DNA from: a virus
Lineage: Duplodnaviria; Heunggongvirae; Uroviricota; Caudoviricetes
Reading direction: 5' to 3' (one strand)
IMG/VR virus record: IMGVR_UViG_2937414065_000001
Length of the DNA: 29,608 nt
How positions within the stretch are numbered: the stretch's first letter is position 1; the number at the start of each line of letters is the position of its first letter. Positions 7,771 to 14,288 of this stretch are shown in pieces. The notes beneath the pieces are model-generated. The model did no database searches, was not told the origin of the DNA, and saw only the letters and a list, made by a program, of their open reading frames with translations. A program made the translations under genes and the position numbers.

Positions 7771-8154
7771 GTGTTTATTGAAGCATTTGCGAGCCTGATG
7801 CAGAAGGCGAAGATCGGTACACTCGGCACTGACATCTTTTGTCACTACATGCCAGCCAATGTGAAGTCCGGTGTTCTGTTGGTTAATCCCAATACGGGGA
7901 TCGCTATTGACCATGAGTTGAAAGGCTTTTATCACGACTCTTTTACCGTCATCGTGCGTAATGCGACGATCACAAAGGCGGTGGCGAAAGCCAATAAGAT
8001 CATGGACATGTTCCCGGTCGAAGAAACCGTGTCAGAGGGCGTTTACTTCCGGTTGGTTCGACCAATGTCGATGCCGATCACTTATCCAAAAAACGAAGGC
8101 TCATTAATTGAAGCGGGCATCCCGATTGAATTTGCGGGCTATTTGTTGAATTAA
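7771..8154 (+). CDS. Tail terminator-like protein, 127 aa
   Basis: GTG start with GAGG RBS; directly upstream of the tail tube; typical size. Confidence 0.65.
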   Translation: MFIEAFASLMQKAKIGTLGTDIFCHYMPANVKSGVLLVNPNTGIAIDHELKGFYHDSFTVIVRNATITKAVAKANKIMDMFPVEETVSEGVYFRLVRPMSMPITYPKNEGSLIEAGIPIEFAGYLLN

Positions 8155-8228: not shown

Positions 8229-8975
8229 ATGTCCAATACCCATGTAAAAAACATCAAACTTGGCGCCTGCAAAGTGTCGTTTGGTGGCGTTGATCTGGGT
8301 TACACCAAAGGCGGTGTTCAGGTTGAAGTTGCGACCGAAACTCTGAAAGTCACCGTAGACCAGCTGGGGCAGACCACCATCTCCGAGCTGGTGCAGGGTC
8401 GTAATATCACGATTACCGCGCCGCTGGCCGAGTCCGTGCTGAAGAACATGGTTGATTTGATGCCTGGCTCTACCCTGAGCGAAGACTCAAACACCGTGAC
8501 CATCACTTCCGCGCAGGGCGTAAACCTGATCGACGTGGCCAAAGAGCTGATCCTGACGCCGCAGGATACCACCGACTACGTTCTGACCATCCCCAAAGCA
8601 GCGACCGCGGGCAACTTCACCATGACCTACCAGTCTGATGATGTTCGCGTTTTCTCCGTTCAGTTCACTGCTTATCCGGATGACAACGGCACGCTGGGGA
8701 GAATGAGCGGCCCAAAGCCGGTTGAGTCCGTCAAGATCACGCCGGAATCTCCGGAAGTGAAGGCGGGCGAAAACGTTCAGCTGACGGCTGAAATCACTCC
8801 AGCAGATGCAAGCGATAAATCCGGTGTCTGGGAATCGGATGCCCAGGGCACAGCAACCGTCGACCAGACTGGTCTGGTTCATGGTGTAGCTGAAGGTACG
8901 GCAAACATTACCTTCACCAGCACCAGTGGTAGCAAAAAAGCGACCAAATCCGTGACGGTTAATGCAGCCGAATAA
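8229..8975 (+). CDS. Major tail tube protein with C-terminal Big_2 Ig domain, 248 aa
   Basis: LGYTKGGV tube motif; Ig domain from about 8718; position before the chaperone and tape measure genes. Confidence 0.9.
   Translation: MSNTHVKNIKLGACKVSFGGVDLGYTKGGVQVEVATETLKVTVDQLGQTTISELVQGRNITITAPLAESVLKNMVDLMPGSTLSEDSNTVTITSAQGVNLIDVAKELILTPQDTTDYVLTIPKAATAGNFTMTYQSDDVRVFSVQFTAYPDDNGTLGRMSGPKPVESVKITPESPEVKAGENVQLTAEITPADASDKSGVWESDAQGTATVDQTGLVHGVAEGTANITFTSTSGSKKATKSVTVNAAE
8696..8725 (+). other. Candidate -1 programmed frameshift signal (GGGGAG, 9 nt, C-CCA-AAG, -1 frame TGA at 8723-8725)
   Basis: Perfect X-XXY-YYZ heptamer at 8711-8717, in register with the reading frame, at the tube/Ig boundary. 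Confidence 0.55.
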
Positions 8976-9035: not shown

Positions 9036-9353
9036 ATGACCAAATTACTCGATCTCGACTCCATTCTGCCTCCGAAGAAAAGCATCAAGTTCGGCGGTCA
9101 GGAATACCCCATCGTTGAAATGACTGTTGGCCTGTTTGTCTCCATCAAGCAGATGGAAGGCAAAGACCTCCAGAACATGTCGCCTGTTGAGCAGGTAACT
9201 GCTTACGCCGACTTGGTTCGCAAGGTCATCCCATCCGTGCCGGACGCTGTACTGGAAAAACTGACTGTTCCGCAGCTCCAGCAGATCTTCACCTTCGCTA
9301 TGGAAGTGATTGATGAAGAGAACGAAAAAGCGGCTGGTGAAGGGGCAAAGTAA
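9036..9353 (+). CDS. Tail assembly chaperone (lambda gpG-like), 105 aa
   Basis: Lies between the tube and tape measure genes; ends GCA-AAG-TAA with an open -1 frame beyond. Confidence 0.85.
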   Translation: MTKLLDLDSILPPKKSIKFGGQEYPIVEMTVGLFVSIKQMEGKDLQNMSPVEQVTAYADLVRKVIPSVPDAVLEKLTVPQLQQIFTFAMEVIDEENEKAAGEGAK

Positions 9354-9703
9354 TTTCCCGCGATGAATCCGGGGTAAAGACCGTATCGATAGATCTCGGA
9401 TTCTATTTCAGTCGTGTAGTTGCTCACTACGCCGTGTCGCCATTAGAGCTGCTGGGCGTCCCTCTAACGATGTTCTGGATGCTCAGTCGCAACATCGACC
9501 GTCTGCGCGCGGAAGAGGATGTCCGCAACCTGCAAGTCGCTCGCGCTGCCCAGGCAGATGGCGAGGGCGTGAAGGCGTTCATGGAGGGTTTGCAACTCAG
9601 GATTGGAAGACCAGTCGTAACCGATAAAGTCTACGATCCACGCAAGGATAAGGCAGACCCTGACGCCAAAGAGCAACTGATGCAAATTTTTGGCAGAGGA
9701 TGA
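9347..9703 (+). CDS. gpT-like segment of the G-T fusion reached by -1 frameshift (fusion 9036..9703, 222 aa)
   Basis: The -1 frame is open from 9341 to 9703 (KVISRDESGVKTVSIDLGFYFSRVVAHYAVSPLELL...); no good independent start or RBS. Confidence 0.75.
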   Translation, partial: KVISRDESGVKTVSIDLGFYFSRVVAHYAVSPLELLGVPLTMFWMLSRNIDRLRAEEDVRNLQVARAAQADGEGVKAFMEGLQLRIGRPVVTDKVYDPRKDKADPDAKEQLMQIFGRG

Positions 9704-9710
9704 CAAGGGA

Positions 9711-12700
9711 ATGTCACAAAACGTAGAGTTTATCCTGTCGCTGGAAGACAAGCAGTTTACAGCGTCAATCGACCGGGCGGGTAAGCTACTTACCAGATTC
9801 GGGGAGCAGGCCACAAAGCCCGCTCAGAAAATTAACAATCTGGAACGCTCGTTGGGTTCGGTATCCCGCATCATCGGCGTTCTGGAGTCCAAGCTCGATG
9901 CCACGGCAGACAAACTACAGGATGTAGCTGCCGGCTTCGAGCTTGTGTCTGATGTTTCGCGCAAGACGCGAGGCAACATTACCAGCCTCAACTCAGGTCT
10001 CAAAACTCTGATTGAGCGCGTCGACACAACCACCTCATCCGTTAATAAACTCACCACATCGCTGCGCAAGGTTCAGTCTGAACTCAACGAGTTTTCCGAT
10101 TGGGCAACGTTCGCTGGTAAGAGCGCCAGCCGCTTCGGTACGGAGGTAAAAGAAGCCTCTGCATCCGTGAGTGGCATGAATACGCGCCTTAACACCACGA
10201 CGAAGCGTCTCAGCAATTGGGGCGTCACAACGAGCCAGGCTGCCGAGGGGCTGAAGAAAGTCCGCGATCAGATGGATGCGGTGATTGGCCGCCAGCAGCT
10301 GATCAGCAAGCCGGTGCGTGTGCGCACCAGCGGCTACGGTGAGGGCGGTGGTAATGGCGGTGGCGGTCGACACAGCGGTTCCTATAGCCACGGCGGGCGC
10401 GGTGCTGAAAATGGCGTGTTCTCTGGTCTGCGCGGCAATATTTTCCTGCTGGGCGAGATTGGTGATGCGGCAAGAACGGTAACTGACATCCTGTTCGGCT
10501 GGCAGAAGCCAATCGTTGAAGCTGCCTCCGAAATGGAGCGTATGCGCGTCATGTTGCGCGGGCTGAACAAGGACAAGGCCAACCCTGGCAAAGCAGCCGC
10601 AGATGACATGCAGTACATCGTGGGTATGGCTCAAAACGCGCCATTCGCGATGGAGGCATTAACAGATGCTTTCGTGAAATTCCGTTCCGCTGGTCTCGAT
10701 CCGACTGATGGCTCTATGAAGTCATTGGTGGACTCTGTCGCCCGCTTCGGTGGTGACAGTGTGCTGCTTAAGCGCGCGGCAGTGGCTGTACAACAGATGT
10801 CTGGTAAGGGCGTCGTGTCGATGGAAGAGCTGCGCCAGCAATTAGGTGAAGCTGTGCCAAACGCGATGCAAGCAATGGCGGATGCTGCCGGTATCACGAT
10901 GGGCGAGCTGACCAAAGCGGTTGCGAGCGGTACGGTCGAGGCGAAACAGGCGCTTTCGTTGATGTTCGTTGGTCTGCGTGCTGAAAACCAGAATGCAGCC
11001 AAAGACATGATGCAAACCTATACCGGTGCGCTGGCACAGCTGCAAACCTCCTTCACGCTCTTTGCTGATCGCGTCGGTCAGGCGGGCTATCTCGATTCTC
11101 TCTCCAAAGGGATGAAAGAGCTGGCGTCCATCATGAACAGCGCAGAGGGCATTTCGTTCGCTAACTCTCTTGGCTCCGGTCTCAACTCAGCAATTGACTC
11201 GCTACGTGATCTGGCGCAGTGGCTGGCAAGAAATCAGGAGTTAGTCATCAGCCTGGGCGAAGCGGTCGCAGCAATGGTGGCGTTTAAAATAATGCGCGCT
11301 GGCATCATGGGTGTGGTTGGCACTGCGGGCGAGATGGTCAATGCGTTTGCGAAGATGTCCACCGCGATACAGGCGCCGTTCAACATGGGTGCGACCGCAG
11401 TGACGCGTTTTAATCGCGCTGCGCGGATGGGGCTGGGGCCGATACCATCGCTGATCTTCTCTATTCGAGGCGCGATAGCGGGGCTTCAGGGGGCGTTTGC
11501 TGGTCTGACTGCGTTCATGGCAGCAAACCCGATTGGCGCAGCGTTTACCGTGGCCACTGTCGCCATCGCTGGGCTGATAACGTACATGACCATGCTCCGC
11601 AGCGAGACGTCCAAAGTCGTTGACGAGATCCGCAAAATCCCGGAAGCGATGACGGCCGCCAAGCGCGCGCAGATGGTTGAGTACAAAGAGCGCCTCGATC
11701 GTCAGATTTCCCAGAAGCAGCAGGAACTCAACTCTGGCGAAAAGGTGATTTATGGCCCCGGTATGGCTGGCACCACCGTCAAAGTAGATCGGCAGAAGGT
11801 GGAGTCCGAGCTTAAAGACCTGCTCGCCGAACGCGAGCGTCTGGGCGGAGCCATCTCGATGGGGGATGCGGCGGTCGCCAAGCGGCTGGCTAAAGAAGCT
11901 GCCGAAACGCAGATTGAGAAAATCCGCGCCGACAACCAGGTTTTCTCAGCTTCGTTTGTGAAAGCGCGTCAGGAAGCACTGGAGAAGATCCAGAAAATCA
12001 CTGACGACAAATCGCTGTCCGATGACGAGAAAAACAAACTGCTCGCGCCGCTCCGTGAGACGGTAAACAACTCCTACCTGAAGCCAGCGCAAAATCTGGT
12101 GGAGGCGCTTTCTAAGCGTAAGACGGCGACAGAAAAGGAGATTGCCCATTACAGCGATCTGCTTGAGAAAGCGAAGAAGGAGGGGAATACCGAGCAAATC
12201 CAGAAGCTGGAAGGCAGCATTCGTGGCTATCAGGAGCATCTGGAAGCTGTTGCTCAGGAGCTGACGCAGGCCGAGTTTGAGCGCGACAGCGCGTCGAAAA
12301 CCGGTAAAGGCGTCATGTCCAACCAGGGCACCGTTTTGGGTCTGGGAACAAACGATAAGGCGTCGCAGAAAGCGCTGGCGCAGTTCATGCGAAACCAGAT
12401 GGACTCCGCGACCTACCAGCGCACACTGCCAGACGGTACGGCGATGCTGGACTTCGAAGGCAAGCCGATCATCGGGCCGAAACAGCTCAAAACCCAGTTG
12501 AACCTGCAGAAAGCCTCCAGCGCCAGCTCTCTGGAGAAAATGAGCGACGAGGAACGTGCTGCCGCGATCGCCGCACTGACCAAAGCGCGTGAGCAGGATG
12601 CCGCAGCAGCAGAAAAAGCCGGGCAGCGTACTGCCAATGCTTCTCAGCGTGCCGCGAGGAAGGAAGAAAATGCGCAGCGTAAGCTGGCGGCCGGCTACCA

Positions 12701-14288
12701 GAAAGCCCTAGATAAAGCCGATCAGCTTATGGGGCAGATGGGTGAAAGCTCAAAAGCGACCGTGTCGTTTGATCAGTCACTCCGCGACACCACCAAATCG
12801 CTGACCGACCTGGCCAACGCCGTACCGAATGAGTTCATCACTCAGGAGATGATCGACAAAGCCAAGTCACGCCTTGCTGATCTGGCTAACGCGAGCGACG
12901 ACTACCGCGAGATGTTCAACCGCCGCAACGTCGAGCAGATGATCTCCACCTGGGCGCCGGAATCCGATTCCATCATTAGCGCGGGTTACAAGCCGTCTCG
13001 TGAAGAGAAGGTGGCCGATTTCAACGACACCTACAACCGTAACCTGAAAGCGTTGATGGATCTGCGTGACCAGGCATCTGATCCGAAAATTGTGGCGCTG
13101 TACACCAAGCAGATCAATCAGCTTGTTGCCGCTGGCAATACCGCGCTCATCAAAGAGACCGGCACGGCCACCCAGAAGCTGGCGCTTGAGTATGAAAATC
13201 TGGCCGAGCAACTGGAAAATAGCTGGAGCAATCTGTTCAGCAGTCTTACCGATACGCTCACCGACTTCGTCATGAAGGGGAAAATGGACTTCTCCAGCCT
13301 GGCAGAATCCATTCTCCGCGACATCACCAACATGGTTGTGAAGACGCAGATCACCCTGCCTCTCATGAACATGCTGGGGATGGGAACGACGGCAGCTGGC
13401 AGCTCTCAGAGCGGCAATCTGCTTTCTGGTGTCGCGTCAGCGGTTGCCAATCAGGGCGTCCGTATGAATGCGGTCAACGGTGACAAGTCAGTAGGTGAAG
13501 CGACGAAAGAGACCTCCAGTTCTGTGTCCGGATTGGGTCAGACGACTCAGCAAACGACCAGCGCTATCGGTACGGCAACCAACGCGATTGGGAGTTGGGT
13601 GTCGGGGCTGTTCAGTAGCACCGAGGCCAAAGACGCTGAAACTAAAGCAGTGAAGACCTCCATCTTCTCAATGCAGAATCTCAGCTCTGTTACTGGCGCA
13701 CTCTCCGCTGCGTTCGCCATGTTGGGGGCAAATGCTTCCGGATCAGGCAACAAGTGGTTGAGTTTCGGTTCGACAGTGGTTTCCGGATTGGTATCAGCCT
13801 GGGCTGGTGGCGGGTTTGATAGCCTGATGTCGGGTTCCTCTGGCAGCTCAGGGTTTAACAATCTGACTGGTTCCGCGGCAGATGGTACGAATGGCATTCC
13901 TTCAATTCCGAAGTTCGCTAAAGGCGGCATTTTCGGGAAAGACGGAGTGGTTCCGCTGCGGGCGTACCAGAAAGGTGGCATCGCGGACTCCCCACAGCTG
14001 GCGTTGTTTGGCGAAGGAGACATGAACGAAGCCTACGTTCCGCTTCCGGATGGTCGTTCCATCCCGGTCACGCTCAATGCAGAGAGTGTTAAAGGCGGTG
14101 GCGGCGGCGTGTTCTCCCCCGTCAGCATTGAGATCAACGTCAACAGCGACGGCAGTGTCACGGAGAACAGCAATTCCGAAGGCGCATGGAGTCAGGCCGC
14201 ACAGCGCATGAAGGCGATCGCGCTTGAAACCATCGCTCAGGAGAAGCGACCAGGAGGTTCGCTCAACCCTAACTCTCAACGTAACTAA
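9711..14288 (+). CDS. Tape measure protein, 1525 aa
   Basis: ATG 9711 with AAGGGA RBS; tape-measure N-terminal domain (AQNAPF...QQMSGKGVVSMEELRQQLGE) and lambda H-like C-terminus (FAKGG...GE...EAYVPL). Confidence 0.95.
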   Translation: MSQNVEFILSLEDKQFTASIDRAGKLLTRFGEQATKPAQKINNLERSLGSVSRIIGVLESKLDATADKLQDVAAGFELVSDVSRKTRGNITSLNSGLKTLIERVDTTTSSVNKLTTSLRKVQSELNEFSDWATFAGKSASRFGTEVKEASASVSGMNTRLNTTTKRLSNWGVTTSQAAEGLKKVRDQMDAVIGRQQLISKPVRVRTSGYGEGGGNGGGGRHSGSYSHGGRGAENGVFSGLRGNIFLLGEIGDAARTVTDILFGWQKPIVEAASEMERMRVMLRGLNKDKANPGKAAADDMQYIVGMAQNAPFAMEALTDAFVKFRSAGLDPTDGSMKSLVDSVARFGGDSVLLKRAAVAVQQMSGKGVVSMEELRQQLGEAVPNAMQAMADAAGITMGELTKAVASGTVEAKQALSLMFVGLRAENQNAAKDMMQTYTGALAQLQTSFTLFADRVGQAGYLDSLSKGMKELASIMNSAEGISFANSLGSGLNSAIDSLRDLAQWLARNQELVISLGEAVAAMVAFKIMRAGIMGVVGTAGEMVNAFAKMSTAIQAPFNMGATAVTRFNRAARMGLGPIPSLIFSIRGAIAGLQGAFAGLTAFMAANPIGAAFTVATVAIAGLITYMTMLRSETSKVVDEIRKIPEAMTAAKRAQMVEYKERLDRQISQKQQELNSGEKVIYGPGMAGTTVKVDRQKVESELKDLLAERERLGGAISMGDAAVAKRLAKEAAETQIEKIRADNQVFSASFVKARQEALEKIQKITDDKSLSDDEKNKLLAPLRETVNNSYLKPAQNLVEALSKRKTATEKEIAHYSDLLEKAKKEGNTEQIQKLEGSIRGYQEHLEAVAQELTQAEFERDSASKTGKGVMSNQGTVLGLGTNDKASQKALAQFMRNQMDSATYQRTLPDGTAMLDFEGKPIIGPKQLKTQLNLQKASSASSLEKMSDEERAAAIAALTKAREQDAAAAEKAGQRTANASQRAARKEENAQRKLAAGYQKALDKADQLMGQMGESSKATVSFDQSLRDTTKSLTDLANAVPNEFITQEMIDKAKSRLADLANASDDYREMFNRRNVEQMISTWAPESDSIISAGYKPSREEKVADFNDTYNRNLKALMDLRDQASDPKIVALYTKQINQLVAAGNTALIKETGTATQKLALEYENLAEQLENSWSNLFSSLTDTLTDFVMKGKMDFSSLAESILRDITNMVVKTQITLPLMNMLGMGTTAAGSSQSGNLLSGVASAVANQGVRMNAVNGDKSVGEATKETSSSVSGLGQTTQQTTSAIGTATNAIGSWVSGLFSSTEAKDAETKAVKTSIFSMQNLSSVTGALSAAFAMLGANASGSGNKWLSFGSTVVSGLVSAWAGGGFDSLMSGSSGSSGFNNLTGSAADGTNGIPSIPKFAKGGIFGKDGVVPLRAYQKGGIADSPQLALFGEGDMNEAYVPLPDGRSIPVTLNAESVKGGGGGVFSPVSIEINVNSDGSVTENSNSEGAWSQAAQRMKAIALETIAQEKRPGGSLNPNSQRN

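Follow-up and report, generated by a model that had tools for sequence, protein, structure and literature searches.

A slippery heptamer at the tube/Ig junction of an SSU5-like phage-plasmid is probably the relic of an Ig-adding −1 frameshift

Results

The tail tube gene of the window

The DNA analysed here, a stretch of 29,608 nucleotides referred to as the window, belongs to an SSU5-like (SSU5 group) phage-plasmid. The tube gene matched that of Salmonella phage SSU5 at 86.5%, and matches to it were present in 792 plasmid records from Klebsiella, Escherichia, Enterobacter, Yersinia, Salmonella and Cronobacter. Among named records, a Cronobacter sakazakii plasmid was the nearest (97.5%). The features of the locus are listed in Table 1.

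Table 1. Features of the tail tube locus in the window, in order of position
Feature	Position	Strand	Basis and remarks
Tail terminator gene	7771-8154		PF12691
Predicted major tail tube gene with in-frame C-terminal Big_2 domain, 248 aa	8229-8975	+	ORF list, Pfam, phrog_1280 match, structure match
Tube domain, codons 1-163	8229-8717	+	Equals the entire 0-frame product of frameshift-type relatives (163 aa, ending ...PK at the homologous codon)
SD-like GGGGAG (core GGAG)	8696-8701	+	Ends 9 nt 5' of the heptamer; window clade only
Slippery heptamer C_CCA_AAG, in frame; probable inherited −1 frameshift site	8711-8717	+	Sequence, census, homology
Big_2 Ig-like domain	8718-8954	+	In frame in the window; −1 frame in sister lineages
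−1 frame stop TGA	8723-8725	+	Sequence; two codons past the slip
Candidate stimulatory hairpin, 16 bp in three stems	8726-8768	+	Starts 8 nt 3' of the heptamer; dG −19.7 kcal/mol
Tail assembly chaperone G-like gene, ending GCA AAG TAA	9036-9353	+	ORF, phrog_893; precedes the tape-measure gene
T-like −1 extension, entered at A_AAG (9347-9350) beside the stop	9347-9703	+	118 open codons, reaching the tape-measure gene; phrog_1131

When a profile of the tube domain was searched against PDB sequences, no match was obtained, and a fold search was therefore required. The AlphaFold model of the 248-aa protein (pLDDT 82.8) contained two domains, a tube domain and an Ig domain, and its best PDB matches in Foldseek were the siphophage tube proteins T5 pb6, lambda gpV and that of mycobacteriophage Douge; Chi also matched. 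The gene lies between the tail terminator gene and the chaperone and tape-measure genes. The model, the structure matches and the gene position therefore identify 8229-8975 as the predicted major tail tube gene, with the heptamer at its domain junction. Fold, domain content and synteny were all those of a siphophage tube protein with a C-terminal Big_2 domain of the lambda gpV or T5 pb6 type. These two proteins, which were among the best structural matches, carry, as in the window, an in-frame Big_2 domain after the tube domain, although similarity of their tube-domain sequences to that of the window was undetectable. To our knowledge, no slippery site has been described at the junction in either of them. 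The Big_2 domain of lambda gpV covers residues 157-246 (PMC8718954).

In the window protein, Pfam placed the Big_2 domain at residues 164-242, and the tube proteins of natural relatives end after residue 163, which corresponds to the tube/Ig boundary. The placing of the heptamer at the tube/Ig junction by an earlier sequence-only reading of this DNA is thus borne out.

The slippery heptamer and its flanking elements

The codons GGC (8709-11), CCA (8712-14) and AAG (8715-17) present C_CCA_AAG in the X_XXY_YYZ register. The −1 frame reads CCC AAA GCC GGT TGA, and the shifted product would comprise 163+2 = 165 residues with the C-terminus ...MSGPKAG. The sequence-only reading had described the in-frame heptamer at 8711-8717, a GGGGAG ending 9 nt upstream of it and a −1 stop at 8723-8725, with products of 248 aa and, after a slip, 165 aa. 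All of these coordinates were confirmed by direct reading, and the predicted lengths agree with the sequence. C_CCA_AAG was ranked among the highly shift-prone sequences in E. coli in a 2016 review of recoding (PMC5009743). In-frame X_XXY_YYZ heptamers numbered 22 in 27 ORFs of the window (9,386 codons), and in the same ORFs 8711-8717 was the sole member of the X_XXA_AAG class. The codon usage was 25% CCA among proline codons and 47% AAG among lysine codons.

The sequence-only reading had found no convincing hairpin 3' of the heptamer, but a candidate exists (Table 1). For the chosen 43 nt, whose boundaries were set post hoc, the z-score was −3.58 and one of 200 shuffles folded as well; for an unselected stretch of 73 nt, z was −1.84. 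Three substitutions within the window clade fell in loops or changed G.U to A-U, leaving the pairing intact. The full hairpin was not conserved outside this clade, and the most stable downstream folds were those of the window clade. The SD-like GGAG was present in 7 unique sequences only, which are the window clade, and there AGA replaces AAA at codon 158; the other lineages have GGG AAA or GGA ACN at this position. Both candidate stimulatory elements, GGAG 9 nt upstream and the hairpin 8 nt downstream, were thus confined to the window clade. Every short-linker fused lineage that bears the heptamer has the same GTT-RAR context, which creates TGA or TAA in the −1 frame.

The apical stem of the hairpin, CCGGA-AUC-UCCGG (8750-8762), arises from the peptide repeat PE-S-PE (CCG GAA TCT CCG GAA). 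The SSU5/pMT1 lineages share this stem, but the clade in which the heptamer was lost has CCA ACC, which breaks it.

Tube gene types among the relatives

The comparative set consisted of 166 usable loci, which were reduced to 78 unique tube genes. The short-linker fusion, to which the window belongs, accounted for 55 of them (245-248 aa, junction ...PK-P-V...), and a long-linker fusion for 7 (253 aa, with an in-frame linker, junction ...PK-PNAGGAS-...). Twelve unique genes were of a frameshift type, with a 163-aa ORF in which NNC CCA AAG is followed immediately by TAA, TAG or TGA. Two Ig-less outgroups, from Moellerella and Xenorhabdus, likewise encode 163 aa and end in A_AAA_AAG plus a stop. 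The remaining 2 unique genes were a 164-aa deletion variant and a distant 179-aa gene of a Stenotrophomonas phage.

Frameshift-type sister lineages

All 12 frameshift-type sequences contained an ORF of 86-89 aa encoding Big_2, which runs from the heptamer in the −1 frame with no stop inside. The loci concerned (L003, L092-L096 and L107-L114) represent at least four diverged lineages with the same layout. One frameshift type (L003, 1501-2252) was found in 20 complete Klebsiella plasmids (e.g. NZ_CP101792, region 12372-14088) from humans, animals, food and wastewater. The variable sites of the −1 Ig ORF were distributed over the three codon positions as 43/33/81 of 89, and this ORF had 0 stops compared with 5-10 in the 0 frame, at amino-acid identities down to 51%. 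Judged by this pattern, the −1 Ig ORF is under purifying selection. An independent start of the −1 Ig ORF was considered and rejected, as there was no ATG, GTG or TTG upstream in frame and no SD was visible.

The heptamer was invariant in the 12 frameshift-type sequences and in the 7 long-linker fused sequences. Among the 161 three-codon runs of the frameshift type, codons 161-163 formed the sole run without any third-position change, while 13.5% of the third positions of the tube domain were unchanged in these lineages. The codon before CCA AAG varied (GCC, AAC, AGC), but its final C was always kept; CCA AAG after a codon ending in C is expected at about 4% from codon usage. The site is homologous in position to that of the window, and in the frameshift-type lineages the comparison of sequences reveals it to be constrained. 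On these grounds, the frameshift-type lineages carry what is predicted to be a conserved, classical −1 programmed frameshift that adds the Ig domain.

Conserved 3' RNA structure was not found in the frameshift type: the RNAalifold consensus was weak (−13.7 kcal/mol) with an unfavourable covariation term, and the single folds differed. The adjacent stop codon was the sole conserved element flanking the heptamer in these lineages. In L003, positions 1996-2002 and 2072-2078 form a perfect 7-nt complement (UGACGGG...CCCGUCA) that spans the start of the −1 Ig ORF. This complement was present in 5 of 7 frameshift-type sequences and broken in 2, without covariation, and the pairing may result by chance from conserved VTG and PS codons. 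In the literature collection searched, there was no publication on frameshifting in tube genes of the SSU5 type.

The heptamer once the Ig domain is in frame

For the 55 unique short-linker fused sequences, parsimony gave 4, 2 and 2 third-position changes at codons 161, 162 and 163, respectively, against a gene mean of 3.68. C_CCA_AAG was intact in 35 of these sequences, weakened to C_CCA_AAA in 4 and destroyed in 16 (CCT AAA, CCT AAG or CAA AAG), most of the destroyed heptamers being within one well-supported clade. The sequence-only reading had named the conservation of the heptamer among relatives and the frame of their Ig domain as checks on its proposal. Conservation was found in part, as the heptamer is kept in these 35 sequences and in all long-linker and frameshift-type ones, but lost or weakened in the other 20 short-linker genes; the Ig domain lies in the −1 frame in the 12 frameshift-type genes and in frame in the 55 + 7 fused genes.

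When one clade of 19 sequences was left out, a post hoc exclusion, the third-position changes at the three heptamer codons were 0, 0 and 0, and Val-165, which makes the −1 stop, was also unchanged. With the same clade left out, however, 11 of 246 three-codon runs were equally unchanged, and this apparent constraint was discarded as evidence. Heptamer loss goes together with absence of the near −1 stop and of the CCGGA/UCCGG stem, but this link was also set aside, because all of these losses fall in one clade and count as one event, which left the comparison without power. Conservation of the heptamer beyond the needs of the protein was absent in the in-frame lineages and present in the out-of-frame sisters only. 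Substitution counts and the census of variants thus indicate no detectable constraint on the heptamer in the fused lineages.

The tubes predicted for the relatives are mostly Ig-less in the frameshift type, all-Ig in fused lineages that lost the heptamer, and without Ig in the outgroups. The ratio of Ig-bearing to plain subunits therefore looks uncritical, and the range of arrangements in living relatives argues for this. SPP1 virions with the plain tube form alone are viable (PMC8718954).

In several in-frame lineages, indels cut the tube protein short at 162-187 aa, either within the Ig domain or immediately ahead of it. These included L084/L164 (IMG/VR 3300014614_000001, ~1984-2000) and P0004, P0005, P0011, P0012 and P0025, some of them in clusters with about 80 members. 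Such frequent mutational loss of the Ig domain fits either a dispensable Ig domain or decay of prophage-plasmids.

Origin of the in-frame fusion

A tree was built from codons 1-160, so that the slippery site was excluded. The frameshift type was paraphyletic in this tree. One frameshift lineage was the sister group of the fused type of the window, and the genes with the long-linker fusion formed a clade of their own. AU tests rejected a single frameshift-type clade (p 0.022) and a single clade of all fused genes (p 0.0185), with modest p-values from a short alignment, groups that were named after the tree was seen, a long branch (L093) and the assumption of no recombination.

In the junction alignment, the distance from CCCAAAG to the point at which homology resumes was 5 nt for frameshift-type genes, 3 nt for the short-linker fusion and 27 nt for the long-linker fusion. 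The corresponding net indels of −2 nt and +22 nt would each bring the Ig domain out of the −1 frame into the 0 frame and eliminate the stop. In the Ig-less outgroups, the stop stands at the homologous codon, behind the slippery run A_AAA_AAG. These data are explained most economically if the frameshift arrangement came first and the Ig domain was fused in frame on two occasions, by different indels. We infer from the tree and the junctions that evolution ran from the frameshift to the fused arrangement.

A run of nine A lies at the end of the outgroup tube genes (GGA/GCA AAA AAA AAG, followed by a stop; L004 1963-1977, on a Moellerella plasmid; L097 1978-1992, on a Xenorhabdus contig), and 160-175 nt separate this stop from the next gene. 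The −1 extensions of 33-34 aa at these sites were dropped as coding candidates, as the Moellerella and Xenorhabdus versions were mutually unrelated. The run may be a remnant of the slippery site after Ig loss, or a site of transcriptional slippage.

The neighbouring chaperone gene pair

The sequence at the end of the chaperone G-like gene (9345-9353) forms a non-canonical site of the G/GT type and is the second frameshift site of the family. G[CT]A AAG TA[AG] was conserved in all lineages examined, including the Ig-less outgroups. In this family, the tube gene and its neighbour, the chaperone gene, therefore share a design in which AAG stands beside a stop.

Discussion

The heptamer at the tube/Ig junction of the window is probably a −1 programmed-frameshift site that was inherited and no longer has its original role. 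This interpretation is favoured because the third-position change at the heptamer is average in the fused lineages and because some of them have lost the heptamer. The sequence-only reading had mentioned a relic as an option, and this option now has the best support: sister lineages have the Ig domain in the −1 frame, and the window gene appears to be a derived fusion. In the ancestor, as in several living Klebsiella-type lineages, the tube ORF would have ended in ...NNC CCA AAG plus a stop with Big_2 in the −1 frame, and most ribosomes would have produced the 163-aa tube protein while those slipping on C_CCA_AAG produced tube-Ig. In the lineage leading to SSU5, pMT1, pHCM2 and the window, a net loss of 2 nt just 3' of the heptamer would have removed the stop and brought the Ig domain into frame. 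From then on, every full-length product would carry the Ig domain, and the heptamer would be kept by descent. Some residual slipping would persist, probably at a higher level in the window clade with its GGAG and hairpin, and the resulting 165-aa subunit would be equivalent to the main 163-aa product of the sister phages and hence tolerated. Real slippage to a tolerated tube-only subunit in the window gene is likely in view of these elements, and we infer that it occurs and is harmless.

Ig-like domains that are added by frameshifting are known from Lactobacillus phage A2 and Listeria phages A118, A500 and PSA (Fraser et al. 2006, reviewed in PMC5009743), and SPP1 makes its tube protein with and without a C-terminal Ig-fold domain by recoding (gp17.1/gp17.1*; PMC8718954). 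In these systems, a tail or capsid protein is recoded at the domain junction, the place of the heptamer in the window, but the shift adds the domain, whereas a shift in the window would delete it. An Ig ORF that lies out of frame and overlaps the end of the tube gene, as in the class of Fraser et al. (2006), was found in the sister lineages and not in the window. The Klebsiella-type SSU5-like tube genes (L003, L092, L094, L096 and L110-L114) share with the window C_CCA_AAG at the same codon and the same two possible products. Their 0 frame, however, stops immediately past the heptamer, so that the tube-only form is the default and the Ig domain needs a shift; the window has its Ig domain in frame, and a shift would remove it. 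According to reviews, Ig domains land in or out of frame by chance (PMC5009743, PMC8718954).

The lambda G/GT chaperone frameshift belongs to the same family of −1 slips on a lysine AAG, and the window has its own site of the G/GT type one gene downstream of the tube gene. Lambda uses G_GGA_AAG, whereas the chaperone site of the window is the tetranucleotide A_AAG beside a stop, in a different gene from the tube.

The tau/gamma signal of dnaX consists of an upstream SD-like element, a 3' stem-loop and an immediate −1 stop. E. coli dnaX resembles the predicted signal of the window in that the slip is at a lysine AAG A-site codon with an SD-like element about 10 nt upstream and a 3' stem-loop, and in that the immediate −1 stop yields a shorter protein lacking its C-terminal domain or domains. 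In the window, two codons are read between the slip and the −1 stop, and the 165-aa product would end where the tube domain meets the Ig domain. In dnaX, the signal is conserved and the two products are both needed, whereas the window signal, as predicted from sequence, combines an SD-like element and a hairpin that occur in one clade with a heptamer that was lost in relatives. Conservation of the signal among homologues, as in dnaX, was thus not seen in this family, which includes both all-Ig and no-Ig relatives. The slippery site of dnaX itself is A_AAA_AAG (PMC5009743).

Four features of the window clade speak against a simple relic: GGAG at a dnaX-like spacing, the heptamer, the hairpin and the immediate stop all occur together, and the combination could be a newly tuned signal instead of decay. 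The heptamer, GGAG, hairpin and stop might then act as a functional dnaX-like truncating frameshift with a selected Ig-free fraction, for example to give a thinner Ig coat along the tail. The spacings are workable for all four canonical elements (SD 9 nt, hairpin 8 nt, stop after two codons), the SD-like element and the most stable fold co-occur in the window clade only, substitutions within this clade spare the hairpin, C_CCA_AAG is highly shift-prone in E. coli (PMC5009743), and SPP1 provides a precedent for mixed tubes with a plain:extended ratio of 3:1 (PMC8718954). However, the SD-like element and the full hairpin are traits of a single lineage with almost no variation, and the significance of the hairpin hangs on its post hoc boundaries, as the unselected stretch shows. 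Adaptation and coincidence would therefore look alike in these data for both elements, each being confined to one lineage. Other in-frame lineages keep the heptamer without SD-like element or hairpin, or have lost it; synonymous change at the heptamer is average across the in-frame lineages; and relatives have mostly Ig-less, all-Ig or no-Ig tubes. Two further points count against a relic, namely that CCA and AAG are not predicted by codon usage alone and that heptamer and Val-165 are unchanged outside one 19-sequence clade, the latter to be weighed against the equally unchanged runs and the post hoc exclusion. On balance, a selected truncating frameshift is considered unlikely. The sequence-only reading had proposed such a reversed logic, with the frameshift rate setting the share of Ig-free subunits. 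It was right that a slip would yield an Ig-less tube, the opposite of the usual Ig-adding shifts, but a selected rate-setting device was not supported by the 4/2/2 changes against the mean of 3.68, by the 16 of 55 lost heptamers or by an SD-like element present in one clade. It is somewhat less likely still that the inherited heptamer was re-armed by GGAG and the hairpin in the Cronobacter-type clade, as a dnaX-like truncation that sets the Ig-free share; if true, sister phages would use one slippery site in opposite ways, to add the Ig domain in one lineage and to remove it in the other.

If the out-of-frame Klebsiella-type genes were broken pseudogenes, as the NCBI annotation implies, the heptamer would everywhere reflect a conserved Pro-Lys, and the site in the window would have no history of frameshifting. 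For 19 of 20 Klebsiella records, the plasmid gene table, which excludes pseudogenes, indeed left the matched stretch without a protein-coding gene, a blank that presumably reflects flagging as frameshifted pseudogenes, and indel-truncated tube genes do occur in the in-frame lineages too. Yet the same layout recurs in at least four diverged lineages with differing stops (TAA, TAG, TGA), the −1 ORF is open for 86-89 codons with a substitution pattern of the coding type, and the third positions of the heptamer are uniquely invariant where codon usage predicts about 4%, all of which makes decay very improbable as an explanation. The Klebsiella-type tube genes are best read as intact recoded genes, hence as an annotation gap. 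That the heptamer arose by chance and is unrelated to frameshifting is harder still to credit: in-frame X_XXY_YYZ heptamers are not rare, with 22 in the window, but this one is the sole X_XXA_AAG, falls precisely on the domain boundary and is homologous in position to the site conserved in the sister lineages.

As the probable leftover of a frameshift-dependent gene, the heptamer would explain why a slippery site of textbook quality stands at the junction of a gene that does not need one. The comparison documents a switch between Ig addition by frameshift and in-frame fusion within one phage-plasmid family, which appears to have taken place at least twice and by different indels; reviews had proposed such a switch in general terms only. 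The family may also be regarded as a natural set of matched constructs, in which the stop codon, the SD-like element and the hairpin context vary around slippage on C_CCA_AAG.
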